Shown here in pieces: positions 4,339 to 36,398 of a stretch of 36,398 bases of DNA; positions within the stretch are counted from its first letter, which is position 1, and every line of letters begins with the position of its first letter. The notes beneath the pieces were generated by a model, which saw only the letters and a list, made by a program, of their open reading frames with translations, did no database searches and was not told where the DNA came from. The stretch comes from a virus (lineage: Duplodnaviria; Heunggongvirae; Uroviricota; Caudoviricetes): the IMG/VR virus record IMGVR_UViG_2869965101_000006; one strand, 5' to 3'. A program made the translations under genes and the position numbers.

Positions 4339-4609
4339 TTACGCAGTCAGGTACTTGAGCTACATGGCATCAGCCATGGTTCGGCCGGAGCAAGAAGCAT
4401 CGCCACAATGGCAACCCGGAGAGGCTACCAGATGGGACGCTGGCTTGCTGGCAGGCTCATGAAAGAGCTGGGGCTGGTCAGCTGTCAGCAGCCGACTCAC
4501 CGGTATAAACGTGGTGGTCATGAACATGTTGCTATCCCTAACTACCTTGAAAGGCTGAACCGCCCCGGGAATCCTGGAGACTAAACTCCCTGAGAAAGAG
4601 GTAAACAGG

Positions 4610-4932
4610 ATGACTAAAAATACTCGTTTTTCCCCCGAAGTCCGTCAGAGGGCGATTCGTATGGTTCTGGAAAGTCAGGGCGAATATGACTCACAGTGGG
4701 CGGCAATTTGTTCCATTGCCCCAAAGATTGGCTGTACACCGGAGACTCTGCGTGTCTGGGTACGCCAGCATGAGCGGGATACCGGAGGCGGTGATGGCGG
4801 GCTCACCACCGCTGAACGTCAGCGTCTGAAAGAGCTGGAACGTGAAAATCGTGAACTGCGCCGCAGTAACGATATCCTTCGCCAGGCTTCCGCTTATTTT
4901 GCGAAGGCGGAGTTCGACCGCCTCTGGAAAAA

Positions 4933-4936
<4 letters not shown>
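4610..4936 (+). CDS. IS629 OrfA
   Basis: 108-aa [24 protein letters not shown]..., IS3-family OrfA. Confidence 0.9.
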
Positions 4937-6395
<1,459 letters not shown>

Positions 6396-6406
6396 TGACC
6401 ACTTCA

Positions 6407-11275: not shown

Positions 11276-11429
11276 TGCTCCCCCTGAGTAATTACAGGAA
11301 GATTACCCGCGCGCGAAACTGTTCTCCTTAACCCTCTGTTCTGGCCGTTTTCTTACAACAAAAGCCCTTTGTATCAGCCTGTTACGCTTTGCCATCATGA
11401 CTGAAGAACCAGTCAGAGGGGCAAAAACT

Positions 11430-11885
11430 ATGGCTAATGAAAAAAAGACATCCCGCAAAAAGTTTCGCGTGGCTGTCTCCGGATCAACTGTTGATGGCCG
11501 TGAAATCAGTCCGGTGCATCTGCGTGAAGCCGCCGAGAACTTCAACCCGGATGTTTACGCTGCCCGCGTGAACGTTGAGCACTATCTCTCGCCATGCCCG
11601 TCAAGCGAATTTTCCGCAATGGGCGATGTCACCGCACTGAGTACGGAAGACATTACGGAAGGTCCGCTGGCCGGACGTACTGCGCTGTATGCAGAAATCG
11701 AACCGACCGAGCGCATGAAGCAGCTTGTTGCGGACGGCAAGAAAATCTATTCCAGTATCGAACTGCACCCGCAGTTCTCCGTTAACGGGCGCGCCTATCT
11801 GGTCGGGCTGGCGATGACCGACACCCCGGCAAGCCTGGGCACTGAGCGCCTGAAATTCACGGCACAGCAACGTCAGGCGGTGATG
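11430..11885 (+). pseudogene. capsid scaffold (P2 O-like) N-terminal fragment
   Basis: KKFRVAVSGSTVDGREISPVHLREAAENFNPDVY… resembles the P2 gpO N-terminus; similarity ends near LGTERLKF and the frame runs on into the endolysin. Confidence 0.7.
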
Positions 11886-11921
11886 ACGTTTAACAGTATC
11901 CAGGGTGAAGGAGAAGGACGA

Positions 11922-12314
11922 ATGAGCAACACATTTAAATTCAGCAGCCGGAGCGAAAAGAATTTGCAGGGTGTAAATCCTGATCTGGTGAAAGTGACCC
12001 GACGGGCACTGGAAATCTCGGAAGTGGATTTTGGTATCACCGAAGGGTTGCGCAGCCGTTACCGCCAGAAGCAACTGGTGGCCACGGGTAAGAGCCAGAC
12101 CATGAACAGCCGCCACCTTACGGGGCATGCCGTGGATGTTGTGGCTTATATCGGCAGCCAGGTGTCATGGGAATGGCCGCTGTACGAAAAAATCGCAGCA
12201 GCATTCAGACAGGCCAGCCGGGAACTGAATATTCCGGTGGAATGGGGCGGCGACTGGAAGACCCTGAAAGACGGACCGCATTTTCAGTTACCACACGGAG
12301 CCTATCCGGCATGA
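11922..12314 (+). CDS. endolysin, peptidase M15-like
   Basis: Internal ATG with AGGAGAAGG RBS; 130-aa product with M15-type motifs (HLTGHAVDV…WGGDW). Confidence 0.65.
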   Translation: MSNTFKFSSRSEKNLQGVNPDLVKVTRRALEISEVDFGITEGLRSRYRQKQLVATGKSQTMNSRHLTGHAVDVVAYIGSQVSWEWPLYEKIAAAFRQASRELNIPVEWGGDWKTLKDGPHFQLPHGAYPA

Positions 12315-17228: not shown

Positions 17229-17565
17229 CCAACAACGCCAACTGCGCGACAGGGAACGAATAATACCCAAATCGCAAGCACGGCTTTCGTTATGGCTGCG
17301 ATTGCCGCCCTTGTAGATTCGTCACCTGACGCACTGAATACGCTGAACGAGTTAGCGGCGGCGCTGGGAAACGACCCGAATTTTGCGACCACCATGACTA
17401 ACGCGCTTGCGGGTAAGCAACCGAAAGATGCCACCCTGACGGCGCTGGCCGGGCTTGCTACTGCGGCAGACAGGTTTCCGTATTTTACGGGGAATGATGT
17501 CGCCAGCCTGGCAACCCTGACAAAAGTCGGGCGGGATATTCTTGCGAAATCGACCGTTGCTGCCG

Positions 17566-17591
17566 TTATCGAATACCTCGGTTTACGAGAA
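17566..17591. other. gix/hix-type inversion crossover site, left copy inside the fibre gene
   Basis: TTATCGAATACCTCGGTTTACGAGAA matches the reverse complement of 21021..21046 at 21 of 26 positions, with an identical ACCTCGGTTTAC core. Confidence 0.6.
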
Positions 17592-18009
17592 CTCGGCACA
17601 AGCGGGGAGAAAATACCGTTACTCAGTACAGCGAATACCTGGACCAATCGACAAACATTCAGCGGTGGCCTTTCTGGGGAACTGTCCGGCAATGCCGCTA
17701 CTGCAACAAAGCTGAAAACAGCACGAAAAATTGCTGGAGTTGGTTTTGATGGTTCTAGCGATATTTCAATTAGTGCCAAAAATGTCAATGCATTTGCACT
17801 CCGACAAACAGGTAATACTGTTAATGGTGATACATCCATTGGATGGAATTGGGATAGTAGTGCATATAACGCCCTGATTGGTGGTGCATCTGCATTAATT
17901 CTTCACTTTAATATAAATGCTGGTAGCTGTCCTGCCGTACAATTCCGTGTGAATTATAAAAATGGTGGCATTTCCTACAGGTCGGCTCGTGATGGTTATG
18001 GGGTTGAAT

Positions 18010-18777
18010 GGTGATGCTGCCAACTTACTGATTTAGTGTATGATGGTGTTTTTGAGGTGCTCCAGTGGCTTCTGTTTCTATCAGCTGTCCCTCCTGTTCA
18101 GCTACTGACGGGGTGGTGCGTAACGGCAAAAGCACTGCCGGACATCAGCGCTATCTCTGCTCTCACTGCCGTAAAACATGGCAACTGCAGTTCACTTACA
18201 CCGCTTCTCAACCCGGTACGCACCAGAAAATTATTGATATGGCCATGAATGGCGTTGGATGCCGGGCAACTGCACGCATTATGGGCGTTAGCCTCAACAC
18301 GATTTTACGTCACTTAAAAAACTCAGGCCGCAGTCGGTAACCTCGCGCATACAGCCGGGCAGTGACGTCATCGTCTGCGCGGAAATGGACGAACAGTGGG
18401 GATACGTCGGGGCTAAATCGCGCCAGCGCTGGCTGTTTTACGCGTATGACAGGCTCCGGAAGACGGTTGTTGCGCACGTATTCGGTGAACGCACTATGGC
18501 GACGCTGGGGCGTCTTATGAGCTTGCTGTCACCCTTTGACGTGGTGATATGGATGACGGATGGCTGGCCACTGTATGAATCCCGCCTGAAGGGAAAGCTG
18601 CACGTAATCAGCAAGCGATATACGCAGCGAATTGAGCGGCATAACCTGAATCTGAGGCAGCACCTGGCACGGCTGGGACGGAAGTCGCTGTCGTTCTCAA
18701 AATCGGTGGAGCTGCATGACAAAGTCATCGGGCATTATCTGAACATAAAACACTATCAATAAGTTGGAGTCATTACC
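18010..18777 (+). mobile_element. IS1, 768 bp, with 9-bp target duplication GGGTTGAAT
   Basis: Ends GGTGATGCTGCCAACTTACTGAT… and …ATCAATAAGTTGGAGTCATTACC; insA 18065..18340 and insB frame 18385..18762; duplication at 18001..18009 and 18778..18786. Confidence 0.9.
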
Positions 18778-19066
18778 GGGTTGAATTAGGTTGGTCAGAT
18801 TTCTATACCACGACACGAAAACCTTCAGCGGGAGATGTTGGTGCATATACGCGGGCAGAATGTAACTCAAGGTTTATTACAGGTATTCGCCTTGGCGGTC
18901 TGTCATCTGTTCAGACATGGAATGGTCCCGGCTGGTCTGACAGGTCAGGTTATGTCGTTACGGGTTCAGTTAACGGAAACCGTGATGAATTAATTGATAC
19001 AACACAGGCAAGGCCAATTCAGTATTGCATTAATGGGACGTGGTATAACGCGGGGAGTATTTAACG

Positions 19067-19600
19067 ATGATGCACTTAAAAAACATTACTGCTGGCAACC
19101 CTAAAACAAAAGAGCAATACCAGCTAACAAAGCAATTTAACATCAAATGGCTTTATTCAGATGATGGAAAAAACTGGTATGAGGAGCAAAAGAATTTCCA
19201 GCCAGACACTTTGAAAATGGTCTATGACCATAACGGCGTTATTATTTGTATTGAAAAGGATGTTTCAGCAATTAATCCGGAAGGCGCAAGCGTCGTTGAA
19301 TTACCTGATATTACAGCAAATCGCCGGGCTGATATTTCGGGGAAATGGTTGTTCAAAGATGGCGTAGTGATAAAGCGAACTTATACCGAGGAAGAGCAGA
19401 GGCAACAAGCGGAAAATGAAAAGCAAAGCCTGTTGCAACTTGTCAGGGATAAAACCCAGCTATGGGACTCACAGCTACGGCTGGGCATCATTTCCGACGA
19501 GAATAAACAAAAATTAACCGAGTGGATGCTCTATGCGCAGAAAGTCGAATCTACAGACACCTCCAGCCTGCCAGTAACGTTTCCCGAACAACCAGAATGA
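19067..19600 (+). CDS. tail fibre assembly protein (P2 G-like)
   Basis: 177-aa ORF directly after the fibre gene; paralogue of the inverted copy at 19629..20156. Confidence 0.75.
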   Translation: MMHLKNITAGNPKTKEQYQLTKQFNIKWLYSDDGKNWYEEQKNFQPDTLKMVYDHNGVIICIEKDVSAINPEGASVVELPDITANRRADISGKWLFKDGVVIKRTYTEEEQRQQAENEKQSLLQLVRDKTQLWDSQLRLGIISDENKQKLTEWMLYAQKVESTDTSSLPVTFPEQPE

Positions 19601-19628
19601 GAGAAGGCCCGATATTGGGCCTTAATTT

Positions 19629-20156
19629 TTACTCAGGCTTTTGTGGCCATTCGGGATTTGCTGTATCCACACGGCTGACCAGAACGCTGTAGCGTTCCCA
19701 TGACTCCAGTCGTGTGCGTTCCTCATCCATCGCCATATTCAGCCTGACAGCGCGTTCCAGTGGCTGAATAACGCTTTCAGCTTCAGAAAGCAACGCGACC
19801 TTTTGTGATTCGGCCTGTTGTTGCTGTTCGTCTGCTGTATAAATCCGCTTAACCACAGTTCCGTCCTTAAACATCCACTTCCCTGAATCATCGGCGCGAC
19901 GATTGGCTGTTATATCTGGAATCTCAACGACACTAAAGCCTTCGGGATTAAGCGTTGAGGCATCTTTGGTTATGGCAACAATAATATTATTTTCGTCGTA
20001 TACAATCTTTATGGTGTCGTCCTGAAAGTTATTTACTTCCTCATACCAGTTTTTACCGTCTTCGGACCATAACCAGATAACATCAAAATTCTTTGTTAGC
20101 TGATATTGTTCTTTTGTTTTTGGATTTCCGGACTTAATATTTTTTAAATGCTGCAT
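19629..20156 (-). CDS. alternative tail fibre assembly protein of the invertible segment
   Basis: 175-aa ORF; N-terminal ~45 residues nearly identical to the 19067..19600 product, then divergent. Confidence 0.75.
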
Positions 20157-20159
20157 AAT

Positions 20160-21020
20160 TTACACCTGTGCGACGTTATACCATGTGCCATTGATGTATT
20201 TTTGTATTGGTCTGAAGATGGCTTCATCATCGCCATCTACTTCACCAATGATTCTTAATCCGGTAATTGCGTGTCCGGCTTTTTCATAACGACCACCACG
20301 CGCCATCAATTGAACAACACGCGTACCCAGGCGAACATCTTTTACATAGCGTGAATCAAAATTCCCCCAGTTGCTGGGCTGTATCTGACCGTTAACAGAA
20401 AATATTACCGAGTTATCTGTATTTCGCTGGCTATAGAAATGCCATCCTGCCTCATCGCCTAACTCTGCAACTACTGGACGGGTTGAAGCACCCCATAAAT
20501 TAAACGTTGCATTCTTTGTGAAGTTGTTGGAGCTGGATAGCGTGAATTTTTTACCATCCCCGGCCTGAATATTTTTAAAAGCAATAGCCACTCCATTCTG
20601 AAAGCGGAATACACGCTGACTATTAGCATAAACATCCAGAATACCGTCTCCATTCTGTTTAAATCCGGTGTCATTATCACCAAGAACAATAGAGCTACCA
20701 CCTAACGCATTCGTCGAACCAACTCCAAGACTGCCATTAATGACAGCATTAACAAGAATATTTAGTGCATCCCATTTCAGCGTCATCAGGTCTTTTGTTG
20801 TGGTGCTCTGGCGGCTTCTCCATTTGAAATATTCATTGCCGTTGTCGCCTGTTTCAAACCACATGTATGAATCAGTGTCACCATCGGCATCATTTTTAAA
20901 TCCAATCTTCGCCCAGTCAGTATTTCGAATCCAGGCAAGGATTGAGTCATTTTCAAAAGTAAGCCCACCGGACAAGGTATCGCCATTTTTTTGCACGGCG
21001 TTACCAGCCCTGTTTACCGT
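20160..21020 (-). CDS. alternative tail fibre C-terminal segment, promoterless and start-less; expressed only after inversion
   Basis: Frame stays open on the minus strand from 20160 up to the gix site at 21021..21046; no ATG of its own. Confidence 0.65.
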   Translation of the reverse strand, partial: TVNRAGNAVQKNGDTLSGGLTFENDSILAWIRNTDWAKIGFKNDADGDTDSYMWFETGDNGNEYFKWRSRQSTTTKDLMTLKWDALNILVNAVINGSLGVGSTNALGGSSIVLGDNDTGFKQNGDGILDVYANSQRVFRFQNGVAIAFKNIQAGDGKKFTLSSSNNFTKNATFNLWGASTRPVVAELGDEAGWHFYSQRNTDNSVIFSVNGQIQPSNWGNFDSRYVKDVRLGTRVVQLMARGGRYEKAGHAITGLRIIGEVDGDDEAIFRPIQKYINGTWYNVAQV

Positions 21021-21046
21021 TTCCTGTAAACCGAGGTTTTAAATAA
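21021..21046. other. gix/hix-type inversion crossover site, right copy
   Basis: TTCCTGTAAACCGAGGTTTTAAATAA, closely resembling the Mu gix sequence as recalled; inverted partner at 17566..17591. Confidence 0.6.
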
Positions 21047-21100
21047 TGGCCGTTTCTGGCCTGCATGGCATGATTTGCGCTTTTGGACGGGAGATTCAGT

Positions 21101-21700
21101 GTGCTGATTGGCTATGTAAGGGTATCAACAAATGACCAGAATACAGACCTGCAACGAAACGCTCTTGTTTGTGCAGGATGTGAACAAATATTTGAAGATA
21201 AATTAAGCGGGACAAAGACAGACCGACCGGGATTAAAACGCGCTTTAAAGCGCCTTCAAAAAGGTGACACGCTGGTTGTCTGGAAACTGGATCGCCTCGG
21301 GCGAAGCATGAAACATCTGATTTCTCTCGTCGGGGAACTACGGGAGCGAGGGATTAATTTTCGCAGTCTGACCGACAGCATAGACACATCTTCTCCAATG
21401 GGGCGTTTTTTCTTCCACGTGATGGGTGCCCTGGCTGAAATGGAACGTGAATTAATTGTTGAACGTACACTGGCCGGGCTGGCGGCAGCGCGCGCAAGGG
21501 GGCGCACAGGCGGACGTCGACCGAAGCTGACAAAAGAACAGCATGAGCAAATAGCAAGGCTAATCAAAAACGGGCACGACAGAAAACAACTGGCAATAAT
21601 TTACGGCATTGGCACATCGACGATTTATCGTTATCACCCTGTAGGCGATATACAGACTGAAGAAACAACCGGGCAGACTCAGGAAAATGAAAACCGCTAA
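21101..21700 (+). CDS. Gin/Pin/Cin/Hin-family serine DNA invertase
   Basis: GTG start giving MLIGYVRVSTNDQ… with catalytic-serine motif and C-terminal HTH; near-identical to Mu Gin as recalled. Confidence 0.85.
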   Translation: MLIGYVRVSTNDQNTDLQRNALVCAGCEQIFEDKLSGTKTDRPGLKRALKRLQKGDTLVVWKLDRLGRSMKHLISLVGELRERGINFRSLTDSIDTSSPMGRFFFHVMGALAEMERELIVERTLAGLAAARARGRTGGRRPKLTKEQHEQIARLIKNGHDRKQLAIIYGIGTSTIYRYHPVGDIQTEETTGQTQENENR

Positions 21701-21718
21701 TCTGACCATTAGCGGTTT
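21689..21718. terminator. bidirectional stem-loop terminator between the convergent invertase and U genes
   Basis: AAAACCGCTAAT-ctgacc-ATTAGCGGTTTT with a T-run on the plus strand and an A-run on the other side. Confidence 0.6.
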
Positions 21719-21728
21719 TTGTGTTAAA

Positions 21729-22223
21729 TCAGAACAGCCCTTTAACTGAACTGGCCGCGCTGTTAAGAGATGATGTCACCTTATCTTTGAAGCCGGACAG
21801 CATATCACTGAACGATGAGGATTGCAGGCGCTCCCGCAAATCCTCATCACAGCGTTCAAGAGTCAGTGAAAATTCTATCTTTTTCGCCTTACCGTAGCGA
21901 TCAAACTCGGAGCGGGTCGTATTCGTTTCAGTCAGGACATACATGCCGTAAATCTGCCCGACGCCATCAATCAAAGGCCAGGGTCGTCCTGTATACGCCT
22001 GCGTGGTCAGCAGCGACAGCGACACTTCGCCACCTGTAATTTCAGGATAAAGCACACCAGAAAGAACGATGCGATCATCACCTGCACCGATATACTGCCA
22101 GCTTGCTGAACGGTTAACGCGTTCATTTTTCACATGCCGCCAGCTTTTGTTTTGCTGTAACTGCTGATGCGGCAGCGTGCGCAGCTCAAAAACAAACATG
22201 CCGTAGATCATCATCATGGCCAT
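21729..22223 (-). CDS. tail protein (P2 U-like)
   Basis: 164-aa ORF with recalled similarity to P2 gpU (…GMFVFELRTLPHQ…). Confidence 0.75.
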   Translation of the reverse strand: MAMMMIYGMFVFELRTLPHQQLQQNKSWRHVKNERVNRSASWQYIGAGDDRIVLSGVLYPEITGGEVSLSLLTTQAYTGRPWPLIDGVGQIYGMYVLTETNTTRSEFDRYGKAKKIEFSLTLERCDEDLRERLQSSSFSDMLSGFKDKVTSSLNSAASSVKGLF

Positions 22224-22229
22224 GACTCC

Positions 22230-25046
22230 TCAATCTTTATCGTAAAAACAGCCACGCCCGGCACGGGCGCGCCGTTCCATTTCTGCCCTGACCATTTCAC
22301 CGACCAGTTTCGCCAGTTCGCGGGGATTCTGCGTAACAACGTTATGCAGATGAACATGAATTTCACCACCAAATCCGGAGGCAACAGGCTCCCGGTTACG
22401 GGAAGTTACAGGAACTGATGCCACTGGAGATCGTATAGCCTCCGCCACCGGGCGGGAGCTGGCCGCAACAACAGGGACCAGCGCCGGAGGCAGCGGAGCC
22501 GGAACCACGGGTGTGATATTAATTGCGGGGGCAGGCTTACTGACCTGCGCAATCTTCCGCTCCTGCCACTCCCCACGAACAGCAAGTGCTCGGGGCAGGT
22601 TTTTAAAGACAATATCGCCGGGGCCAATGCGTTTTTTCGTCTCCTCAACCAGCTTACCTGTGTTATCAGCAATTTTGCTGAGTCTGCGCAGCGTACCGGT
22701 ATTGCTGTCTGTGAGCGGTTTATTGTCTTTGGGGTTATCACCTCCGGTGCCATTGCCATTTTCCACAGGCTTCGGCGGATTGATTTTCGCCAGGTCCCCC
22801 TGAAGCAAGGCAACCTTGTCCTGAAGAATGGCCGCACGCTGTGCGTCTTCGATTTTCTTGCGCGCCCTTTCCGCTTCATCCGGAAGCACACCAAGCTTTT
22901 CAAGTATCCACGCCAGCGTATCCAGCAACATTTTTGCAGGTGTCAGAACAAGTTGTAACGCACCGCCAAGAACGTTACCGAATATCTCGCCAGCACTGGT
23001 ACATTTATCCAGAGTTTCCTTGCTGGACTCCATCGGTGACAGCAGCGATTTAAACCAGTTAAACACCTGGCTGATCCCACTCCCGATTGCGTCAAAAACA
23101 GGACCAAACCGTTCAAATGTTTCGCGCAACGGGGTCAGCCTTTCCATAATCCCGCTGAACACCCCGGCAAAAAATGCCCTGATGGGATCCCAGTATTTCC
23201 AGATAAGAACGGCAGCTCCGGCAAGCGCAGCCACGATAAGACCAACCGGACTGAACAACGCCCCGATAGCGCCTCCCAGTAAAGAAACGGAACCCGTCAC
23301 CATTCCCCATAGTGCTGGCAGAACCCTGACAGCATTCATTGATCCGGTCAGGAGGGAAAAACCAAGACGCAGTTTTGCCAGCGGGCCAGCAAGCACACCA
23401 ATAGCCAGCGACAACGAGCCAACCGTTGCAGTCATTGCCAGCAATGCACCGCCTGCAATCAGTAGCTGGCGCGTCAGTGCGGGATGGGCCTGCGCCAGCG
23501 CCGTCACCTTTGATACCACACGCGTGAGCCACTGCGTGACAGAACGCAGCGGACCGTCAATCAGATCTGCAATGCGGATGCGCAACCCTTCCCATGCACT
23601 GCTGAGTGATTTCAGATCGCCGTCAAGGTTGTTGGCCATAACCTTTGCCGTGCGTTCAGCCTCACCGCGCGCGCCTTCAAGTTCTTTTCTCAGTTTGGGT
23701 AAGGAGCCGTCACCTGCCGCATCAACGAGGGCCATAAATGATGTGAAAGCCTCTTCTCCGGCAATGTCCTTAAAGAACGATACCCGGTCAACTTCCCCGT
23801 ATTTGCGGGTAGCTTTATAAAGGTCAGCCAGCACATCCTCCATCGGGCGCATTTTGCCCCCGGCATCCGAGACAGACACGCCAAGCTCTTTCAGCGCCTC
23901 TGCTGCCGCCTTTGGCGGTGATGCCAGACGAGCCAGGCTGGCACGCATTGCCGTACCAGCATCACTCCCCCTGATACCCATATTCGCCAGCACGCCCGCC
24001 ATCGCTGCGGCCTGCTCCAGAGATATTCCCAGCTTACCCGCCACCGGACCTGCATATTTCATGGTTTCACCCAGTGCGCGAAGGTCAGTGTTGGTACGGG
24101 TAAACGCTGCGGTGAGTGTGTCGCCGACCCGGTCCATCTGGTCAGCAGAAAGACCGAACTGCGTCAGAATATTTGAGCCAATATCCGCCGTCTCACCGAG
24201 GTCCATACCGCCAGCCGTTGCCATGCTCAGTACGCCAGGGAGCGCAGCCTGAATGGCCTGTGGTGTAAAGCCAGCCATTGCAAGAAATGCCTGTCCACTG
24301 GCGGCATCGCCTGCGGTGAACTGCGTTTCAGAGCAAAGTTTTAACGCCTGCTCACGCAGCGCCTTAAACTGCGGGCTGTTCTGGTCGATTCGCGTCAGTG
24401 CCTGAACGCGGAACATCTCTTTGCCGAACCCGATCGCAGGCTGCAAAAAACGCCCGGCAGCATAGCCGCCCGCCGCTGCCGCACCAATTGCCAGCGCACC
24501 ACCTGTTTTCAGTTTTCCCGCTGTTTCCTGCGCGCGCGAATACCGCTCACGCGCCCGTGTTACACGCGCAAGCGCCTGCCGTTCGCGTTCAAGCTGGTTG
24601 TTGTACTGTTCGGTGCGTCTGATGGCCTGCTGGATGGTGTTATCGCTGCCTGTCAGGGAAATGCCGTGGCGTTTCAGCTCTCCGCCAAGCTCCCGCATTT
24701 TCTGAATTTCCCGTGTGCGCGATTCATTCAGGCGTTCAAGCCGGGTGCTTAACTGCTGCATCAGCTTTTGTTGTTTTTCGCTGAGCACTGTACCCGTGCG
24801 TTGTAACTGATTAAGGGCGTTAAGCTGGCGTCGTGCTTTCACGATGCCCGCATCCGCTTTACTGACAGCGTCACGGGCGCGCTCAAATGATCGCGCCTGA
24901 CGCTCGAGATTTTTGATCGCCCCCTGCGTTCGCTGGATGGAGTCACCAAACTGCCCCATCAGGCGGCGGGCGTTTTCGGCAGGCCGGGTCAGCCTGTCAA
25001 CGGCGCTGAAAGCGACCCGGATATCAAGAGTCTTCATTGTCTGCAT
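22230..25046 (-). CDS. tail tape measure protein (P2 T-like)
   Basis: About 940 aa, Ala/Gly-rich with coiled-coil and hydrophobic stretches; intact ORF; start approximate. Confidence 0.85.
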   Translation of the reverse strand: MQTMKTLDIRVAFSAVDRLTRPAENARRLMGQFGDSIQRTQGAIKNLERQARSFERARDAVSKADAGIVKARRQLNALNQLQRTGTVLSEKQQKLMQQLSTRLERLNESRTREIQKMRELGGELKRHGISLTGSDNTIQQAIRRTEQYNNQLERERQALARVTRARERYSRAQETAGKLKTGGALAIGAAAAGGYAAGRFLQPAIGFGKEMFRVQALTRIDQNSPQFKALREQALKLCSETQFTAGDAASGQAFLAMAGFTPQAIQAALPGVLSMATAGGMDLGETADIGSNILTQFGLSADQMDRVGDTLTAAFTRTNTDLRALGETMKYAGPVAGKLGISLEQAAAMAGVLANMGIRGSDAGTAMRASLARLASPPKAAAEALKELGVSVSDAGGKMRPMEDVLADLYKATRKYGEVDRVSFFKDIAGEEAFTSFMALVDAAGDGSLPKLRKELEGARGEAERTAKVMANNLDGDLKSLSSAWEGLRIRIADLIDGPLRSVTQWLTRVVSKVTALAQAHPALTRQLLIAGGALLAMTATVGSLSLAIGVLAGPLAKLRLGFSLLTGSMNAVRVLPALWGMVTGSVSLLGGAIGALFSPVGLIVAALAGAAVLIWKYWDPIRAFFAGVFSGIMERLTPLRETFERFGPVFDAIGSGISQVFNWFKSLLSPMESSKETLDKCTSAGEIFGNVLGGALQLVLTPAKMLLDTLAWILEKLGVLPDEAERARKKIEDAQRAAILQDKVALLQGDLAKINPPKPVENGNGTGGDNPKDNKPLTDSNTGTLRRLSKIADNTGKLVEETKKRIGPGDIVFKNLPRALAVRGEWQERKIAQVSKPAPAINITPVVPAPLPPALVPVVAASSRPVAEAIRSPVASVPVTSRNREPVASGFGGEIHVHLHNVVTQNPRELAKLVGEMVRAEMERRARAGRGCFYDKD

Positions 25047-25187
25047 TCCCGCTACGAAGTGCCGCTCGCTCACGCCAGCTAACCACTTCGCAGGGCGTCA
25101 TCATGAAGATTTCGGCGGGCGACCAGTTAAAAATGGCGGCAATATCCGCCACCAGATCTTCGATGTGCTCAAAGCACACCAGGGTGA

Positions 25188-25562
25188 TTACGCTGCCGTC
25201 TCCTGCACGCTCTTCGCGCCAGAGTCTGGCTCGCTCATAAAATTTACAGCCACAGCGCACAACTGAATAAAATCGCGTGACGACATTTTTTTAATCATCA
25301 CTTCATCCAGTCGTGGCGAGGTCACGCGAGGCAACAGCGTGAACATGGTATCCGCTTTCAGATTCAGCACATCAGACAGCGACAGACCACGCAGGGATCC
25401 AGCCTGCTCAATAGCCCCGGTGATCTCCACATACGTGATTTTTTCGCCACCACGCTCAATTGGTCGGGTCAGTTTTACGCCACGTTCGACAGCCATATCC
25501 TCAACTGCCGTCACATTATCCGCCACGGTGTTATTCCGGGTTTCAGTATCGATGTCTTTCAT
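25188..25562 (-). CDS. tail assembly chaperone E, with a -1 frame extension (E') to 25024
   Basis: Overlapping ORFs 25188..25562 and 25024..25260 in 0 and -1 frames directly upstream of T; slippery candidates at 25239..25245 and 25286..25292. Confidence 0.65.
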   Translation of the reverse strand: MKDIDTETRNNTVADNVTAVEDMAVERGVKLTRPIERGGEKITYVEITGAIEQAGSLRGLSLSDVLNLKADTMFTLLPRVTSPRLDEVMIKKMSSRDFIQLCAVAVNFMSEPDSGAKSVQETAA

Positions 25563-25620
25563 CTGTTGTCTCCTTTTCAGTCAGAGGCGACGCACTGCGC
25601 CGCCAGCATATTACTTATCA

Positions 25621-26905
25621 GCCAAGCCCAAGCGCGGAACGGATGCGATCGGGCACAATGTCCTTGCCGTCCTTCGGTGATGCTGCCAACTTACTGATTT
25701 AGTGTATGATGGTGTTTTTGAGGTGCTCCAGTGGCTTCTGTTTCTATCAGCTGTCCCTCCTGTTCAGCTACTGACGGGGTGGTGCGTAACGGCAAAAGCA
25801 CTGCCGGACATCAGCGCTATCTCTGCTCTCACTGCCGTAAAACATGGCAACTGCAGTTCACTTACACCGCTTCTCAACCCGGTACGCACCAGAAAATTAT
25901 TGATATGGCCATGAATGGCGTTGGATGCCGGGCAACTGCACGCATTATGGGCGTTAGCCTCAACACGATTTTACGTCACTTAAAAAACTCAGGCCGCAGT
26001 CGGTAACCTCGCGCATACAGCCGGGCAGTGACGTCATCGTCTGCGCGGAAATGGACGAACAGTGGGGATACGTCGGGGCTAAATCGCGCCAGCGCTGGCT
26101 GTTTTACGCGTATGACAGGCTCCGGAAGACGGTTGTTGCGCACGTATTCGGTGAACGCACTATGGCGACGCTGGGGCGTCTTATGAGCTTGCTGTCACCC
26201 TTTGACGTGGTGATATGGATGACGGATGGCTGGCCACTGTATGAATCCCGCCTGAAGGGAAAGCTGCACGTAATCAGCAAGCGATATACGCAGCGAATTG
26301 AGCGGCATAACCTGAATCTGAGGCAGCACCTGGCACGGCTGGGACGGAAGTCGCTGTCGTTCTCAAAATCGGTGGAGCTGCATGACAAAGTCATCGGGCA
26401 TTATCTGAACATAAAACACTATCAATAAGTTGGAGTCATTACCCCGTCCTTCCGGTAAATGAAGTTCAGCAGGTCAATCTCCCACAACGGGCGATCGTTA
26501 ACACTCAGCTTGTAGTAGGTGTTTTAATGGCGTAAGTGTGTGATGTGGCTTCGCCCTGTTTGGCTTCCCCCATATCAATTTCCGTCACACGTCCGCGCAT
26601 TTCGACTTCATACAGGTCGCTTTCTGCATCGGTGTAGTATTCACCCGCAAAACGCAGCAGCGTGCCGTCAATCGTGCCGCCATACTTAAGGAACAGCTCA
26701 CGAACTGCGCCCCCATGACAAAGCTCGCATCAAGCGCGGAGTCGTCCAGACCGAGATCAATACTTACCGCACCCATCATGCCACCACCCCGGTAGCTGTC
26801 GGTTTTGCGCGTCAGCTTAGGCAGAGTGACGGACGTCACATTACCCACTTCGTTTTCACCATCCACAAACAGCGTAAAAAAGCGAAGATGTTTTGGCACA
26901 GCCAT
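25621..26905 (-). pseudogene. tail tube (P2 FII-like) destroyed by IS1 and frameshifts
   Basis: N-terminus (…SVTLPKLTRK…DLGLDD…) matches FII; homology then changes frame at least twice (around 26500 and 26700) and is split by IS1. Confidence 0.75.
25676..26443 (+). mobile_element. IS1, second copy, 768 bp, with 9-bp target duplication CCGTCCTTC
   Basis: Identical to the copy at 18010..18777, same orientation; duplication at 25667..25675 and 26444..26452. Confidence 0.9.
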
Positions 26906-28089
26906 CAGGCACCTCCCAGCACCGCAAATGCGGGTTCAAAGTATTCATCAGTAAACGTCTGGTAAAGCTCCATGTCTTCCAGTGGCGGAACGGGCGTATA
27001 TTTGTAGCGAATACGCACACGTCCCTGACGTAAATCCGTGGTGCTGTTATCCACCACGTCATACCAGCACTCCGCGCCAATCAGTTTCCCGGCAGTCACC
27101 AGTGAATCCAGTTTTGCCCTGATGGCACTGATAACATCCTTCACATTCGCAGGCGTCAGTGGACTGTCGATGGTTTCAAACTGCGCTTCCGCAATTGAAT
27201 CAGCCAGCACCTGTGCGGTTCGGGTATACACCTCAAAGATGTAGGCGTTCGTTTCCGGTGTGCGGTTACCCCAGAAGCGGACCCCGTTGCGACGAATAAT
27301 GGTCGTGATTTCTTTGTTGTTGAGGCTGTTGGCATCGCTGTCTTCGGCCTGCAACGACCAGAACACATGCCTCGACATCCCCAGCACATTTTTAACCGGA
27401 ACGTTGGACAGCGATTTGTGCCATCCCTGTTCATGGTCAATGTACGCACGAAGGCCGCACGCATAGGCAGGCGCGGGGAACGTTTCGTTTTTGCCATTTT
27501 TCGGGTTGTAGGCGATGAAGTCCGGCCATAAGAGCATCACCTCACGTTCGTTGAATTTCTGGCGGTAGGTAATTGCCTCGGCCATCGTGTTACAGCCATG
27601 ACATGAGGCATACACAAACGCGCGCAGTTTATCTGCAATCACGCACAGGGATTTTGTTACCGCCTCCGTGTCCAGCTCCGGCGCGGCCAGAATACGCGGA
27701 CGGTATCCGATGCTTTCATCCTGCTCTGCAACAAGCAGCGCATACATCCCCGTATAGCTGCCGTCATCCTCAGAACCACCGATAACCAGTTGATCCTGCG
27801 TCTTTCCGTCTTCTTCTTTGTGTTCAGCCACGCGAACGACGATCACCTTTGTGCTCACCTGGTCTGCGATGGCCTTAAGCGCACGATAAAGCGTCCCCGT
27901 TGTCCCGCATTTTCCCAGCACGTCATTGACGCGGGTCAGCAGTGTGGGCTTGTTCAGCGGGAACAGCTTCGCGTCCGCATCATCCGCCGTTGCCACGATA
28001 CCGATAACGCTGGAATCAACATCGTTAATCGCTGTTACCAGGTCGGTATTCTCCGTAACACGGGCACCATGAAAACGAGTTTCACTCAT
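26905..28089 (-). CDS. tail sheath protein (P2 FI-like)
   Basis: 394-aa intact ORF with sheath-like sequence. Confidence 0.85.
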   Translation of the reverse strand: MSETRFHGARVTENTDLVTAINDVDSSVIGIVATADDADAKLFPLNKPTLLTRVNDVLGKCGTTGTLYRALKAIADQVSTKVIVVRVAEHKEEDGKTQDQLVIGGSEDDGSYTGMYALLVAEQDESIGYRPRILAAPELDTEAVTKSLCVIADKLRAFVYASCHGCNTMAEAITYRQKFNEREVMLLWPDFIAYNPKNGKNETFPAPAYACGLRAYIDHEQGWHKSLSNVPVKNVLGMSRHVFWSLQAEDSDANSLNNKEITTIIRRNGVRFWGNRTPETNAYIFEVYTRTAQVLADSIAEAQFETIDSPLTPANVKDVISAIRAKLDSLVTAGKLIGAECWYDVVDNSTTDLRQGRVRIRYKYTPVPPLEDMELYQTFTDEYFEPAFAVLGGA

Positions 28090-28246: not shown

Positions 28247-29356
28247 ATGACCGACACCACCATGCAATTGCTCAGTCAGGGCACGGCCCCCGTGAAAATG
28301 CCGGATTTTGATATTCTCTCGGAGGGTAAAACGCTGTCAGGCGTGGCGGAGCGCCTGATGAGCCTGTAACTGACCGACAACCGGGGATTTGAGGCGGACC
28401 AGCTCACCATCACGCTGGATGATGCGGATGGTCAGTTGCAGCTACCGCCACGGGGCGCGCGTCTGACGGTTCTCATTGGCTGGAAAGGGGAACCGCTGAC
28501 AGAAAAAGGCACTTACATTGTTGATGAAATCGCTCACGAAGGACCGCCGGACAGGCTGACTGTTTCAGCCAGAAGCGCAGATTTTCGGGATGAATTTAAC
28601 GTTAAACGTGAGGTGTCCTGGCATGATGTGACCGTTGAGCGTGTGGTATCCGCCATCGCTCATCGATACGGTCTGAAACCGCAAATCAGCGAAATGCTGA
28701 TGGATATCGAAATCGACCACGCCGACCAGACCGAAGAAAGCGACATGTCCTTTCTTACGCGCATGGCGGAAATGCTGGGAGCAATCGCCACGGTAAAAAG
28801 CGGCAATCTGTTATTCATCATGCCAGGTGGTGGCGTGAACGCACAGGGGCAGCCGTTGCCCTCGTTCGCCATTACACGCAGCAGCGGCGATCGCCATCAG
28901 TTCCGCATTGCTGACCGCGAGGCGTATACGGGGGTACGCGCCTACTGGCTTGATCTTAATTACGGGAAAAAGAAAAAAGTCAGCGTGAAACGCCGCAAAC
29001 CGCCAAAACCCAAAAAGGAGAAAAGCAGCAGTCGGGAAGGCGACTATATGGAAGGTGCGGAAGGCAACGTGTTTGTGTTACGCAAGACTTATCAGAACGA
29101 GCAGGCAGCAAGACGCGCAGCGGCGGCAAAGTGGCAGCAGCTACAACGCGGAGCCGCATCATTCTCCATCACGCTGGCGCGTGGTCGTGCAGAACTCTAT
29201 CCCGAAATGCATGGCACAGTGACAGGCTTTAAAAGCGAGATTGATTATCAGGACTGGATTATTGCAAAAGCCGAGCACACCATTGATAACAGCGGCTTTA
29301 CCACGCAGCTTGAACTTGAAGCAAAAATCCCGGAATGGATAGCAGAAACAGAATAA
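28247..29356 (+). pseudogene. tail protein D (P2 D-like) with in-frame TAA
   Basis: ATG at 28247 after a GGGAGGGAG RBS; in-frame TAA at 28367..28369 inside the conserved …LTDNRGFEADQL… motif; the rest (28436..29356) is open. Confidence 0.75.
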
Positions 29357-29604: not shown

Positions 29605-32600
29605 ATGATTGGACAATTTTTAAGTGCAACAGAGATTTTAGCAAAGAACTATGTTCGTAATAAAATGGTTAAAAATCCATTTTATTCGAATTTAAAATGG
29701 AATTTTATTGAAAAAAACATCATAAGATTAACATCCTCACCGGTTAAATCAGTACTTTGCATATCAGCTTTTTCATTTGTACTACTTTATGTTGGATATT
29801 TAAACGAATTATTTATAAAAAATAATCTTTTACATTATTTCCCGTTTAGGCATTCATTAACCGAATGGCAAACAACCATTTTAAGTGGCCAATTGACAAT
29901 TATTGGTATTGTATACCCCCTTGTTATAGGTTTAGTAAGTATCTTATTCCAAAAAAAGGCAGATAGAAAAATAGCCCAAACTGCTTATCAGCGTTACTCA
30001 GGATTCATGCTTGCTGGACTCAGCGGGCTTTTCTTATCAGGATTTATACTTCTCAGTGTACTAATTAAAACTGTCTTTGGAAGTTATCTTTATGGTATAG
30101 CTTGTCTAATCAGCATATTATGGCTTTTGATAAACATAGTTCTTTCTATTTGGTTCTTTATCGTGAGTCTTGAAATTCTTGATGATGTAAAACGGCAAAT
30201 AATTATAAAGCGATACATTGCCTTCGAAATAGTAATGCCCCATATTTGTAACAAAATCTCAGCCAAGCTTAGGTTATACCCTATCTATCAAAAACATAAC
30301 TATTCAAATTTAGAAATCAAGCAAGCCGATTACAAAGGAGAATACATATCTGTGGCTAGCAGTTATTCTAAGGAAGATGAGTTAAGTTTATATCACCGTC
30401 CTTTTCAACTTACTCTTAATCTTATTAATTACCAACTAAAAAAGAAGAATCATTTTGCGTCATTTGTCATTGGTGATAATCGTACAAAAGAAACAGAATC
30501 CACGGGTAAGATACTTTTTAGCGTTAAAAATATCAAACCAGACAGCTTATTAATAAAAATACTTAAGCAATGTTTTTATAGGGCTCCGATTAAAGGAGGA
30601 GATTTTTCCGTAAGTCTTACAATGCAGGCTATAACAGCAGATACGTATATGTATCTGCGGGATTCTGATCTCATTAGTTTTGACAATGCTATCTCTGCAT
30701 TAATTAATAACTTTAATAATCTCTGCGATTTGTATTTTTTTCAAGATGATAATACCAACAATAACTTCTTACTGATCACTACAGAATTATTTGAACGGAG
30801 TTTTCAATATGAGTTTTCAGATGAAGTTTATAAAATATCAAATAATTCCATGGATAAAATTAATCTTTCTGAAAGATTTTTTGAATTATGTCTTTGGAGC
30901 GGAGTGCGTATTATCAATAATAGAAAACATCTTATCAGCAATGAACTTTGTATCTATATGGGAATTACTCGTTCACAATGGTCAATATTAACAGAATGGT
31001 TCCGAAACAACCAATCACTCTTAAATGCCTCGCTTCGTTCACGTTATAATCGTATATTAAGAACCTATACCACTGTTTGGGAGCAATATCAAGAAAGCAT
31101 AAACTTTCGTTTCTGCAATACAGAGAATTCAGATTTATTTGAATTATTTTGCAAAACGCAACTACAAGAACTTCCATCGATGATTATTGATGCAACACAG
31201 ACTCGCGATCCTTCTACTATTGATACAGCCGTCGATCTTATTAACCGATGGCAGCACTCAATGAATATTGACAGCCATTCGGTAGAAAAATACAGTTACA
31301 AAGGCCAGCTTTTTAACCCGGGTTTTTTCATATCCAAAAAACTAAACTTCAATTCAGACAGAGAGTGGTTCAATATTGCCATCATAAATGCGTTGACTGA
31401 CATGCGTATATGCACATGTCTTTATCTGACATCAAGAATCAATACTTCTGACAAACTAATGACACATTACATTAAACTTATTTTAGAGGGTAAACTTATT
31501 GACCAAACCGGTGGATATGAAACTCCCACTGAAGAAATTGATAATGCAAGCCAACTAATCAAGATATTAATTAGAATCTGCCTGTGGACATGGTCTGAAA
31601 ATATGGAACACAATGGGTGGATGAATAGTTTAGCAAGGCGTTTACGTGACTATGATAAAACAGACATGGTGATGGGCAGAGTTTACAGTAATGTTTTTGA
31701 CTGTGGATTTATTGATATGGAACAATCATGGGTTCAGCTATTATTAATTTTTTCTAACAAGAACGATAGCGTATCAAAAGAAATAAAAGAAGCAATAGAA
31801 AACAACTATATAACATATCGTGAGAAGCAACGACTCATTGGAGTATTATCAAAAATTTGTAACTCCATCGAATACACTAAAATCAAGCTGACTTTAACAT
31901 TGGACGATCTCCAAACAAAAAAAGAAAACTTAAGAAAGTTGCTTCAAGAGCATATTAACATGCTAAAGAAAGATCTTGATATGAGACTTCAGGATGCTGC
32001 CATAGATGTACATCGACTAGATAGCACTGCACGTAAAACATCAGAACATCTTCGTAAACGCATCAAGAAAACGCTCCCTCTTTCACTTTTTAAATCTATT
32101 GATTTTAAGCAGGCTAGCGATTGTTTCACAAAACATAAGATATCTATTAAGATAGATAAAGAACCGTATGCCGAAGGAATAGAATCCATCCCTTATATCA
32201 ATGAAGGTGATATTCAAGCAGACTTAATTCTCAAGGACATCCAGAGAATAATACTTTCAAATTTATTTAGCACTGGCTGTTCGCAACATACCGTAATAGA
32301 AGATTTCAATATGTTGATTGATCACATAAAATCATCTGCTGACTTGGCTGGCAAACTGGTTCTTGTGATGAGTAAAGAGATCTTTCAGCAATATAATCGT
32401 ATGCTTTTCGATAATCCCAACCTCAGAGAACTAATGAGAAAAAATGATGATGGCTCTATGAACATAACTACTGAATCCGGTACCCGTAAGGTTTACTTCT
32501 TACCATTTGTTAATCAACCATTTTCTCTTGTGGTAAAGGATAACTACTTCACTAAATTAATTATTAGAGAATATGATAATAATAAGTTAGTAAATGTCAC

Positions 32601-32724
32601 TTCAGAGAATATCAAAAGTGACTCAGATAAATTCAAGCTAACTCTTAACTATGAGTTGAATGTAGTATTTGAAGGAAACGCTGATTTAAAAATAGCTCAC
32701 TCGCAAAGAGTGACATCAGAATAA
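29605..32724 (+). CDS. large hypothetical membrane-anchored protein (1039 aa), AT-rich cargo gene
   Basis: Uninterrupted ORF; four hydrophobic helices in the first ~190 aa then ~850 aa of Asn/Lys/Ile-rich soluble sequence; no Walker A, HxH or other obvious catalytic motif by eye. Confidence 0.75.
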   Translation: MIGQFLSATEILAKNYVRNKMVKNPFYSNLKWNFIEKNIIRLTSSPVKSVLCISAFSFVLLYVGYLNELFIKNNLLHYFPFRHSLTEWQTTILSGQLTIIGIVYPLVIGLVSILFQKKADRKIAQTAYQRYSGFMLAGLSGLFLSGFILLSVLIKTVFGSYLYGIACLISILWLLINIVLSIWFFIVSLEILDDVKRQIIIKRYIAFEIVMPHICNKISAKLRLYPIYQKHNYSNLEIKQADYKGEYISVASSYSKEDELSLYHRPFQLTLNLINYQLKKKNHFASFVIGDNRTKETESTGKILFSVKNIKPDSLLIKILKQCFYRAPIKGGDFSVSLTMQAITADTYMYLRDSDLISFDNAISALINNFNNLCDLYFFQDDNTNNNFLLITTELFERSFQYEFSDEVYKISNNSMDKINLSERFFELCLWSGVRIINNRKHLISNELCIYMGITRSQWSILTEWFRNNQSLLNASLRSRYNRILRTYTTVWEQYQESINFRFCNTENSDLFELFCKTQLQELPSMIIDATQTRDPSTIDTAVDLINRWQHSMNIDSHSVEKYSYKGQLFNPGFFISKKLNFNSDREWFNIAIINALTDMRICTCLYLTSRINTSDKLMTHYIKLILEGKLIDQTGGYETPTEEIDNASQLIKILIRICLWTWSENMEHNGWMNSLARRLRDYDKTDMVMGRVYSNVFDCGFIDMEQSWVQLLLIFSNKNDSVSKEIKEAIENNYITYREKQRLIGVLSKICNSIEYTKIKLTLTLDDLQTKKENLRKLLQEHINMLKKDLDMRLQDAAIDVHRLDSTARKTSEHLRKRIKKTLPLSLFKSIDFKQASDCFTKHKISIKIDKEPYAEGIESIPYINEGDIQADLILKDIQRIILSNLFSTGCSQHTVIEDFNMLIDHIKSSADLAGKLVLVMSKEIFQQYNRMLFDNPNLRELMRKNDDGSMNITTESGTRKVYFLPFVNQPFSLVVKDNYFTKLIIREYDNNKLVNVTSENIKSDSDKFKLTLNYELNVVFEGNADLKIAHSQRVTSE

Positions 32725-32859: not shown

Positions 32860-33096
32860 ATGTTCCGTTGTCCGCTTTGTGGCGCATCTGCCCGTATCCG
32901 CACCAGTCGTCCGGAAAATGATTCAAACACCGTGAGACAAAAGTATTATCAGTGTAACAATCTAGAATGCGGCGTATGTTTCTCAACACTGGAAGCCTTC
33001 CACAAATTCACTTCAAAGCACGCCTCCCCCATTCACTCATCAGAGGGCATCCCGTTGGATTTGCCCCTATATTTCCAGACATCTGTTATCACTTAA
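32860..33096 (+). pseudogene. ogr: late-gene activator ogr, 3' end replaced by the IS2 insertion
   Basis: MFRCPLCGASARIRTSR…YYQCNNLECGVCFS zinc-finger N-terminus like P2 Ogr; from codon 66 the frame is IS2 sequence; original 3' end at 34388..34452. Confidence 0.8.
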
Positions 33097-33972
33097 CCCA
33101 TTACAAGCCCGCTGCCGCAGATATTCCCGTGGCGAGCGATAACCCAGCGCACTATGCGGATGCCATTCGTTATAATGCTCGAACGCCTCTGCAAGGTTCT
33201 TTGCTGCCGTTAACCCGTCTGGTTTGGGCATGATACTGATGTAGTCACGCTTTATCGTTTTCACGAAGCTCTCTGCTATTCCGTTACTCTCCGGACTCCG
33301 CACCGCCGTGTTCTTCGGTTCAAGTCCCAACATCCGGGCGAACTGGCGTGTTTCATTAGCCCGGTAGCATGAACCATTATCCGTCAGCCACTCCACTGGA
33401 GACGACGGAAGATCGTTGCCGAAGCGGCGTTCCACCGCTCCCAGCATGACGTCCTGTACTGTTTCACTGTTGAAGCCGCCGGTAGTCACCGCCCAGTGCA
33501 GTGCCTCACGATCACAGCAGTCCAGCGCGAACGTGACACGCAGTCTCTCTCCGTTATCACAGCAGAACTCGAACCCGTCAGAGCACCATCGCTGATTGCT
33601 TTCTTTCACGGCCACTCTGCCTGTATGTGCCCGTTTCGATGGCGGTACAGCAGGTTTTCGCTCAAGCAACAGGGCATTCTGGCGCATGATCCGGTAAACA
33701 CGTTTGGCATTGATCGCAGGCATACCATCAAGTTCTGCCTGTCTGCGAAGCAGCGCCCATACCCGACGATAACCATACGTGGGCAGCTCTCCGATAACAT
33801 GGTGTATACGGAGAAGCACATCCGTATCATCAGTGTGACGACTGCGGCGGCCATCCATCCAGTCATCGGTTCGTCTGAGAATGACGTGCAACTGCGCACG
33901 CGACACCCGGAGACAACGGCTGACTAAGCTTACTCCCCATCCCCGGGCAATAAGGGCGCGTGCGCTATCCAC
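33067..33972 (-). CDS. insD: IS2 InsD (OrfB, DDE transposase)
   Basis: 301-aa ORF; its 3' end is the sequence duplicated in the remnant at 3580..3844. Confidence 0.85.
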
Positions 33973-34336
33973 TTTTTTGCCCGTCCATATTCAACGGCTT
34001 CTTTGAGGAGTTCATTTTCCATCGTTTTCTTGCCGAGCAGGCGCTGGAGTTCTTTAATCTGCTTCATGGCGGCAGCAAGTTCAGAGGCAGGAACAACCTG
34101 TTCTCCGGCGGCCACAGCAGTAAGACTTCCTTCCTGGTATTGCTTACGCCAGAGAAATAACTGGCTGCTACACCATGTTGCCGGGCAACGAGGGAGACCG
34201 TCATCCCCGGTTCAAAGCTCTGCTGAACAATTGCGATCTTTTCCTGTGTGGTACGCCGTCTGCGTTTCTCCGGCCCTAAGACATCAATCATCTGTACTCC
34301 AATGACTAGTCTAAAAACTAGTATTAAGACTATCAC
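33930..34336 (-). pseudogene. insC: IS2 insC (orfA) with internal frameshift
   Basis: orfA is split into two overlapping ORFs (34064..34336 and 33930..34115) in different frames. Confidence 0.6.
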
Positions 34337-34642
34337 TTATTTAAGTGATACTGGTTGTCTGGAGATTCAGGGGGCCAGTCTACCCGTGGCATGAACTGCC
34401 AACTTCACACAGAGGAAACAATCAGATGAGTTTGCCCTTACCTCAGAATTAACGAGCAGAATTGCCGGAGTAACAAAAAAGCGATAGATTACGCGCGGGT
34501 GCCTTTCGGCTGATGGTCGGAGGGAATACCTGAAGGCCAGATGTGGAAAGGCCCCGGAAAACATTTTTGTTTAACCGAGGCCCTAACCGTCTACCCTAAG
34601 CAAGTGATAGGTTAGCGCCTCCCCGAAAAAGGAGCAAGCGCT

Positions 34643-34905: not shown

Positions 34906-35201
34906 GTGTCCTCACCGACTTGAAACAGTGATCAGACTATAAGACAAAGCCCACAATGTAGCGGGCTTACTCCCGTTACTTTATTCGTACCCCTTATAAT
35001 GGGGTGTTAGCCAGCCAGACCCGGCATGATTACTGCCCCCAGTCGTCCATGATCCGGGGGGTGATGTCACCGGGTCTGGTGGGGCGCTGGTAACCGCTAA
35101 TAGGGGTCAGGTCAGGCATTTTTGCCGGGACCGTCTGTAACGTGGATGCCGGTACCTGCTCCCCGTGGTTATCTGGTTAACCCATATACAAGGGAGACAG
35201 A
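34906..35201 (+). ncRNA. candidate left-end non-coding region of an IS110-family element (possible bridge/guide RNA)
   Basis: About 300 bp without an ORF immediately upstream of an IS110-family recombinase gene; boundaries not determined. Confidence 0.3.
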
Positions 35202-36398
35202 ATGACCGAATCCAGCGATTACGAATCCGTCCAGGTCTTTATCGGCGTTGATGTCGGTAAAGATACGCATCACGCTGTTGCCATTAATCGTTCAGGTAAA
35301 CGCCTGTTCGATAAAGCATTACCCAACGACGAAAACAAACTCAGGTCGCTAATATCTGACCTGAAACAACATGGTCAGATACTGCTGGTTGTTGATCAGC
35401 CAGCTACCATCGGTGCGTTACCTGTCGCCGTTGCCCGCTCAGAAGGAGTCCTTGTCGGATACCTCCCTGGACTGGCCATGCGCCGCATAGCCGACTTACA
35501 CGCCGGTGAAGCTAAAACTGATGCTCGTGACGCTGCCATCATTGCCGAAGCTGCCCGTACCCTGCCTCACGCGCTACGCACGCTGAAACTGGCTGACGAG
35601 CAAATCGCCGAACTCTCCATGCTCTGCGGCTTCGATGATGATCTTGCCGCACAGACAACGCAGGCCAGCAACCGTATCCGCGGCCTTCTGACCCAGATAC
35701 ATCCGGCACTGGAGCGCGTTCTCGGTCCGAGACTTGAGCACCCGGCGGTACTCGATCTTCTCCAGCGATATCCCTCACCAGAAAAACTCGCTTCGCTGGG
35801 TGAGAAGAAGCTGGCAGCCCAGCTCTGCAAACTTGCGCCTCGTCTGGGTAAACGCCTTGCAGCAGACATAGCTCAGGCACTGGCCGAACAAACCGTCGTC
35901 GTTCCCGGCACGAATGCCGCTGCCGTAGTACTGCCACGTCTGGCACTCCAGCTCATCACGCTGCGTAAGCAAAGAGACGAGGTGGCGCTTGAGGTAGAAC
36001 AGCGAGTTCTTGCTCACCCTCTTTACCCGGTCCTGACCAGTATGCCCGGAGTCGGTGTCAGGACCGCAGCCAGACTCCTCACCGAGGTCGCCTGCCGCGC
36101 CTTCGCCTCTGCCGCACATCTCGCTGCTTATGCTGGCCTTGCGCCGGTAACTCGGCGATCCGGCTCGTCAATACGCGGTGAGCATCCCTCGCGACGGGGT
36201 AATAAAGCTCTCAAACGGGCGTTGTTCCTGTCGGCCTTCGCCGCGCTCAGGGATCCGCTCTCCAGGGCTTACTACACCCGCAAAATGAGTCAGGGAAAAC
36301 GACACAATCAGGCGCTTATCGCCCTGGCGAGACGACGCTGCGACGTTCTGTTCGCCATGATGCGCGACGGGACTTTTTATACCCCGCAGGGGTCATAA
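35202..36398 (+). CDS. IS110-family (DEDD) transposase/recombinase
   Basis: 398-aa ORF; N-terminal FIGVDVGKDTHH RuvC-like motif and C-terminal …SMPGVGVRTAARLL… region; GGAGACAG RBS; stop coincides with the window end. Confidence 0.8.
   Translation: MTESSDYESVQVFIGVDVGKDTHHAVAINRSGKRLFDKALPNDENKLRSLISDLKQHGQILLVVDQPATIGALPVAVARSEGVLVGYLPGLAMRRIADLHAGEAKTDARDAAIIAEAARTLPHALRTLKLADEQIAELSMLCGFDDDLAAQTTQASNRIRGLLTQIHPALERVLGPRLEHPAVLDLLQRYPSPEKLASLGEKKLAAQLCKLAPRLGKRLAADIAQALAEQTVVVPGTNAAAVVLPRLALQLITLRKQRDEVALEVEQRVLAHPLYPVLTSMPGVGVRTAARLLTEVACRAFASAAHLAAYAGLAPVTRRSGSSIRGEHPSRRGNKALKRALFLSAFAALRDPLSRAYYTRKMSQGKRHNQALIALARRRCDVLFAMMRDGTFYTPQGS

Follow-up and report, generated by a model that had tools for sequence, protein, structure and literature searches.

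The question raised by this locus is how a single tail tube gene came to carry both an insertion sequence and more than one change of reading frame: whether all of these lesions are real, in which order they arose, and whether anything other than neutral decay is needed to account for them. A first-pass annotation, made from the letters alone, had read the gene as hit independently by IS1 and by at least two frame changes, had taken this IS1 and another copy in the same prophage as separate transpositions, and had named sequencing error in the frame changes as the finding that would overturn the reading. We followed up these claims in the window, by which we mean the whole 36,398-nucleotide stretch of DNA analysed here, by comparing it with intact and damaged relatives. 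The window matches CP026762.1 at 100.000% identity over 19,814 bp. It carries a defective, P2-like prophage, which occupies the stretch from the btuC side to the ihfA side of a chromosome of the Shigella boydii type.

Identity of the tail tube gene and its frame changes

On the minus strand, the late genes follow the order sheath, tube, E/E′ and tape measure, as in a P2-like late operon. Immediately upstream of the tube gene is an intact tail sheath gene of 394 aa (26905..28089, minus strand); the series is completed by a chaperone gene of the E type (25188..25562, minus strand) and the tape measure gene (22230..25073, minus strand). The tube start codon, at 26905, overlaps the sheath stop as ATGA. 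The gene itself is divided into a 5′ part (26453..26905, minus strand) and a 3′ part that includes the TGA stop (25618..25675, minus strand, with the stop at 25618..25620); the first-pass range of 25621-26905 was correct, and with the stop codon the FII-type (PF04985) pseudogene spans 25618..26905 on the minus strand, including the inserted IS1 (copy B).

For repair of the gene, the IS1 and one copy of its target duplication were excised and two bases were restored. The repaired product is 170 aa long, one residue (K22N) off WP_000290450.1, and it matches PF04985 (Phage_tube) at 159.4 bits against a cut-off of 22.4, over profile positions 1-165 of 165. Because the repaired product fits the family model over its full length, we take the gene to be a true FII-type tube gene that has become a pseudogene; this match and the ATGA overlap with the sheath gene bear out the FII assignment made on first reading. 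The likeness to the P2 tail tube FII extends to the same slot, directly behind the sheath gene and ahead of those for the E/E′ chaperone and the tape measure, whereas the two differ in that the gene here is disrupted and its product shares 43.6% identity with P2 FII. At that level of identity, the prophage is therefore a P2-like relative and not P2.

In locating the frame changes, the IS1 and one duplication copy were removed and the remaining 566 bases were translated in three frames, in which the tube protein follows a path from frame 0 to frame 2 and then to frame 1. Four intact references (E. coli 95-3192, UTI89, GDSC2BY4G and ETEC4088), all encoding the 170-aa WP_000290450.1, were then aligned. 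Against them, only three differences fall inside the tube gene, namely K22N and two 1-bp homopolymer deletions, all on the minus strand. The substitution, a G to T change on the coding strand at 26840..26840, serves as a lineage marker. In frameshift 1, the coding strand has G5 where the intact genes have G6 (26710..26714, read as C5 on the plus strand); it shifts the frame after codon 65-66 and creates a truncated ORF of 106 aa (26585..26905). Frameshift 2 turns A5 into A4, again on the coding strand (26522..26525, read as T4 on the plus strand), near codon 128. The count of at least two frame changes given on first reading thus becomes exactly two, both of them −1 deletions in homopolymers relative to the intact genes. 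Each deletion by itself destroys the reading frame, and their sum of −2 brings no compensation. With the two deletions and the IS1 insertion, the gene has no uninterrupted frame for the whole protein; its longest ORF is the one of 106 aa, of which only ~65 aa are in the native frame. Programmed frameshifting was ruled out as an explanation, as the deletions do not cancel and homologues with an intact gene read straight through. A programmed shift of P2 is known in E/E′, not in FII.

IS1 in the tube gene

IS1 copy B (768 bp, 25676..26443, plus strand) is inserted after tube codon 155 and is transcribed opposite to the tube gene. On its plus strand it carries insA (25731..26006; zinc ribbon plus HTH, PF03811 and PF12759), the A6C slippery or frameshift motif AAAAAAC (25982..25988) and the insB′ ORF in the −1 frame (26051..26428; DDE, PF03400), and 18 of the 23 positions of its terminal inverted repeats agree. 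These are the features of the IS1 family, which has a length of ~768 bp, imperfect terminal repeats of ~23 bp, insA/insB′ with A6C and a 9-bp duplication, and to judge by sequence the ORFs and ends of copy B look intact. The 9-bp duplication ascribed to this copy is indeed its own and perfect: CCGTCCTTC abuts the element on the left (25667..25675) and on the right (26444..26452), and occurs nowhere else in the window. Relatives with an empty site (six loci) have the target uninterrupted, with a single copy of the 9 bp (GAAGGACGG). In a search of 5,426 complete E. coli genomes, neither the IS1/tube junction nor the A4 of frameshift 2 was found.

In Shigella, IS1 is the most abundant IS, and both IS-mediated gene disruption and deletions between copies are established (PMC7373316). 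The tube gene resembles the IS1 insertions and IS-driven pseudogenes described there (Hawkey et al. 2020, PMC7373316) in element anatomy, 9-bp duplication, disrupted coding sequence and IS-rich genome, and also in that a relative shows a deletion between two homologous copies. The sole difference is that the target here was already a double-frameshift pseudogene; the mechanism is the same.

Chance, slippage or selection

In total, ~10 lesions are found across the prophage, and three of them fall in this 513-bp tube gene, an accumulation with P ~3e-4 under a uniform model. Such a value could speak for selection to silence the tube gene, or for a G6 tract that works as an on/off switch, instead of neutral decay. 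The figure applies, however, to the tube gene picked in advance: under the same uniform model the chance that some prophage gene collects at least three of ~10 lesions is ~0.15, and for two of the three 1-bp indels to land in one gene, whichever it is, the chance is 0.17. Clustering in the tube gene is not significant when every gene is counted as a possible target.

The tract itself can be examined in a similar manner. In the 22.8 kb of alignable prophage, only one other G/C run has the length of the G6 run. Sporadic cases of the change from G6 to G5 are seen elsewhere in E. coli, with other alleles and other prophage integration sites, and this recurrence is the second point in favour of selection or switching. 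Against it, G5 is rare, being present in 3 of 1088 E. coli complete-genome records, and six bases make a short tract for a contingency locus. A contingency locus is recognised by frequent tract-length variation among close relatives, whereas the frequencies here are the 3/1088 just given for G5 and 0/895 for the A4 of frameshift 2, which was sought in the 895 matching complete E. coli records. In the Shigella loci inspected, G5 is present in 10 of 10. Furthermore, every relative has a broken ogr, the late activator gene, and the tube gene was therefore probably unexpressed anyway.

On these grounds we read the tube lesions as slippage at the most slippage-prone site together with neutral decay, and not as the outcome of selection; silencing or switching strikes us as very unlikely. 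The broader proposal, in which the G6 tract is a recurrent slippage hotspot that disarms tails in many E. coli and Shigella lineages and the three hits reflect selection for silencing, seems similarly improbable. As separate observations, the O145 strain RM12275-C1 (L002, 3001..3567) has a tube frameshift of the G6 to G5 type where its sister O145 strains have G6, and G6 to G5 is found on 98 contigs with E. coli alleles that lack K22N. The G tract change is recurrent, or possibly an error in single assemblies.

Order of the lesions

Ten related loci were compared for the presence of each lesion. IS1 occupies the identical tube site in four of them (L006, L007, L009 and L012), while the other six, Sb227 included, have both frameshifts and K22N with the IS1 site empty. 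These six loci agree with the view of IS1 and the frameshifts as independent lesions and go further than it: since they carry both frameshifts without the element, IS1 entered a tube gene that was already dead. Within the set of loci compared, the distribution shows the frameshifts to predate IS1 in this gene.

The reverse order, in which IS1 was the first inactivating hit and the frameshifts came later under relaxed selection, is the intuitive one for IS-rich genomes, and the 100% identity of the IS1 copies is uninformative on their age relative to the point lesions. It would nevertheless have to explain six assemblies in which the frameshifts and K22N accompany an uninterrupted target with a single GAAGGACGG, by supposing that in six genomes IS1 left precisely and took one duplication copy with it, which is far less parsimonious than one late insertion. 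We consider IS1 as the first hit to be extremely improbable. Among the genomes with the Shigella allele, we looked for one that carries a single member of the trio K22N, frameshift 1 and frameshift 2, and none was found.

Other lesions divide along the same line. The stop codon in gpD and the IS2-like element in ogr are common to 10 of 10 loci; the IS1-bearing sub-lineage adds a 3.4-kb deletion, a terminase gene frameshifted by −1, a portal gene with a stop codon and the second IS1, none of which occurs in the Sb227 lineage. We therefore think it very likely that the tube gene of this defective P2-like prophage decayed stepwise, with the frameshifts first and IS1 later. In a first step, in an ancestor common with S. 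boydii Sb227, slippage would have dropped one base each from G6 and A5, and K22N would have arisen. The same ancestor would already have had the gpD stop codon and an ogr split by the IS2-like element. In a second step, in a later sub-lineage, two simple IS1 transpositions would have taken place, into the dead tube gene and into gene H, and this sub-lineage would also have lost the capsid gene block and had its terminase gene frameshifted. Given that the tube gene was dead already, the IS1 insertion would have come without further functional cost.

Origin of the IS1 pair and a recombinant relative

The second IS1, copy A (18010..18777, plus strand), lies in the C-terminal part of the tail-fibre gene H, between two copies of its own 9-bp duplication GGGTTGAAT (18001..18009 and 18778..18786). 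It is 100% identical to copy B over 768 bp, in direct orientation and 7.7 kb away, and the 6.9 kb between the copies are collinear with intact prophages at 99.7% identity. Relatives exist in which both IS1 sites are empty; a genome with only one of the two copies was looked for, and none was found. Carriers of copy A could not be counted through the 570-aa H::IS1 fusion ORF, which on exact look-up matched its own source genome only.

The two copies are separate simple insertions, since a perfect duplication of its own flanks each of them, the interval is native and collinear, and relatives are empty at both sites. Separate transpositions had been proposed from the distinct duplications (CCGTCCTTC and GGGTTGAAT), and the collinear interval and the empty sites now strengthen that proposal. 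A composite, Tn9-like transposon, or a single intramolecular replicative transposition, could be suspected from the identity, direct orientation and spacing of the copies, and from their co-occurrence in every genome seen, where they are both present, both absent or recombined. The locus does share with Tn9-type IS1 composite transposons a DNA segment bracketed by two direct IS1 repeats. It differs from them in that a perfect duplication belongs to each copy, that the outer flanks are not a common duplication but differ (GGGTTGAAT versus CCGTCCTTC), and that the bracketed DNA is the resident tail region, with its genes in the native order of intact prophages. Replicative transposition, for its part, would yield an inversion or a deletion with split duplications, neither of which is seen. 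A composite or replicative origin is contradicted by these observations and, in our estimation, exceedingly unlikely.

In CP001063.1 (L033), a single IS1 at 11156..11923 stands between GGGTTGAAT to the left and CCGTCCTTC to the right, the latter leading into the tube 5′ part and the sheath gene, and this tube and sheath sequence is 100% identical to the window. With one flank from each site, this IS1 is the recombination product of the two copies, with deletion of ~7.7 kb of tail genes. In coordinates of the window, the interval lost is equivalent to 18778..26443 (7,666 bp); it starts with the right-hand duplication of IS1-A, ends with IS1-B and contains the 3′ end of H, G, the alternative fibre cassette, the invertase gene, U, T, E/E′ and the 3′ end of FII. 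The main consequence of the IS1 insertion is structural, with identical direct repeats 7.7 kb apart serving as a substrate for homologous recombination.

Frameshifts as lineage mutations

The base calls of the window itself rest on agreement with other assemblies. Through exact look-up, the 106-aa truncated product, K22N included, was found on 953 public contigs, from assemblies of NCBI, ENA and Logan, and 1068 blocks of the sequence collection index it; it is named in S. boydii Sb227 and in S. boydii 3594-74. All 10 of the independent assemblies inspected, among them Sb227, have K22N and both deletions. Over the 22.8 kb of alignable prophage, 2 of 132 homopolymers of at least 5 bases differ from the intact reference, and the sole further 1-bp indel is in the terminase gene. 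Since the exact truncated product recurs on 953 contigs and both deletions are in 10 of 10 assemblies, we conclude from this agreement that the two frameshifts are fixed lineage mutations, and that in this assembly such homopolymer changes are genuine lineage markers and not errors. That both frame changes are instead homopolymer errors of sequencing or assembly, with IS1 alone real, has next to no probability: both do sit in runs that are a classic error context, the RM12275-C1 assembly has G5 where close relatives have G6, and some related assemblies have many other indels, but contigs from many projects with an identical frameshifted product, the ten concordant assemblies and the low number of deviating homopolymers exclude the one alternative by which the initial interpretation was to be overturned.

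The locus is a textbook case of IS expansion and pseudogene decay in Shigella, and public records already contain its sequences. Its importance hardly goes beyond bookkeeping, as a clean and dated example of decay that ran from frameshifts to IS1 and on to an IS1-by-IS1 deletion in a sister strain. Beyond the claims made on first reading, the comparison adds that the frameshifts are older than IS1 and that recombination within the IS1 pair has already led to a deletion in a sister genome. Candidate phylogenetic markers for S. boydii sub-lineages are both frameshifts, the junctions of IS1 and that of the recombinant.

Other features of the prophage

Several lesions lie outside the tube gene. 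The large terminase gene has a −1 deletion at 10664, the portal gene (8476..9525) has an in-frame stop, and an in-frame stop in gpD (28247..29353) leaves 306 aa versus 369. The junction of the 3.4-kb deletion, defined relative to intact prophages, is at 11898..11910 and leads from gpO into the holin gene. This deletion removes the 3′ part of gpO, the capsid, small terminase, head completion and X genes and most of the holin gene, and it fuses gpO to the M15 endolysin in a 294-aa ORF (11430..12314). The 294-aa ORF, used as a marker of the deletion, is on 92 contigs, versus 953 for the truncated tube ORF; a 305-aa ORF (11397..12314), whose called start differs from that of the 294-aa version, gave no match on exact look-up.

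Further mobile elements are present. Nested IS3-family elements at 3580..6406, one inside the transposase gene of the other, occupy the place where intact relatives have the replication endonuclease gene. The IS2-like (IS3-family) element that splits ogr is ~1.33 kb long (33056..34382), and at its junction the alignments of the two flanks to the intact reference share 5 reference bases. After hok, where relatives have ihfA, comes a transposase gene of the IS110 family (35202..36398, in the region 34975..36398). The invertible tail-fibre segment (17562..21050) has the invertase gene adjacent to it and IS1-A inside it. Its orientation in the window is that of GDSC2BY4G, and the opposite orientation is seen in ETEC4088, Sb227 and L007.

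The prophage described here resembles the cryptic or defective prophages known from E. coli K-12 and Shigella in that point lesions, insertions of IS elements and deletions have built up step by step while some cargo genes stayed intact, and we noted no difference of substance. Between gpD and ogr, an intact ORF of 1039 aa (29605..32724, plus strand) has a G+C content of 30-36%, versus 51-60% for the prophage, and it is intact in nearly all related loci despite the ~10 lesions elsewhere. A search of Pfam, PADLOC, NCBIfam and PDB sequences with this ORF gave no match; its RefSeq label is 'MFS transporter'. It may represent putative hotspot cargo, for example for defence.
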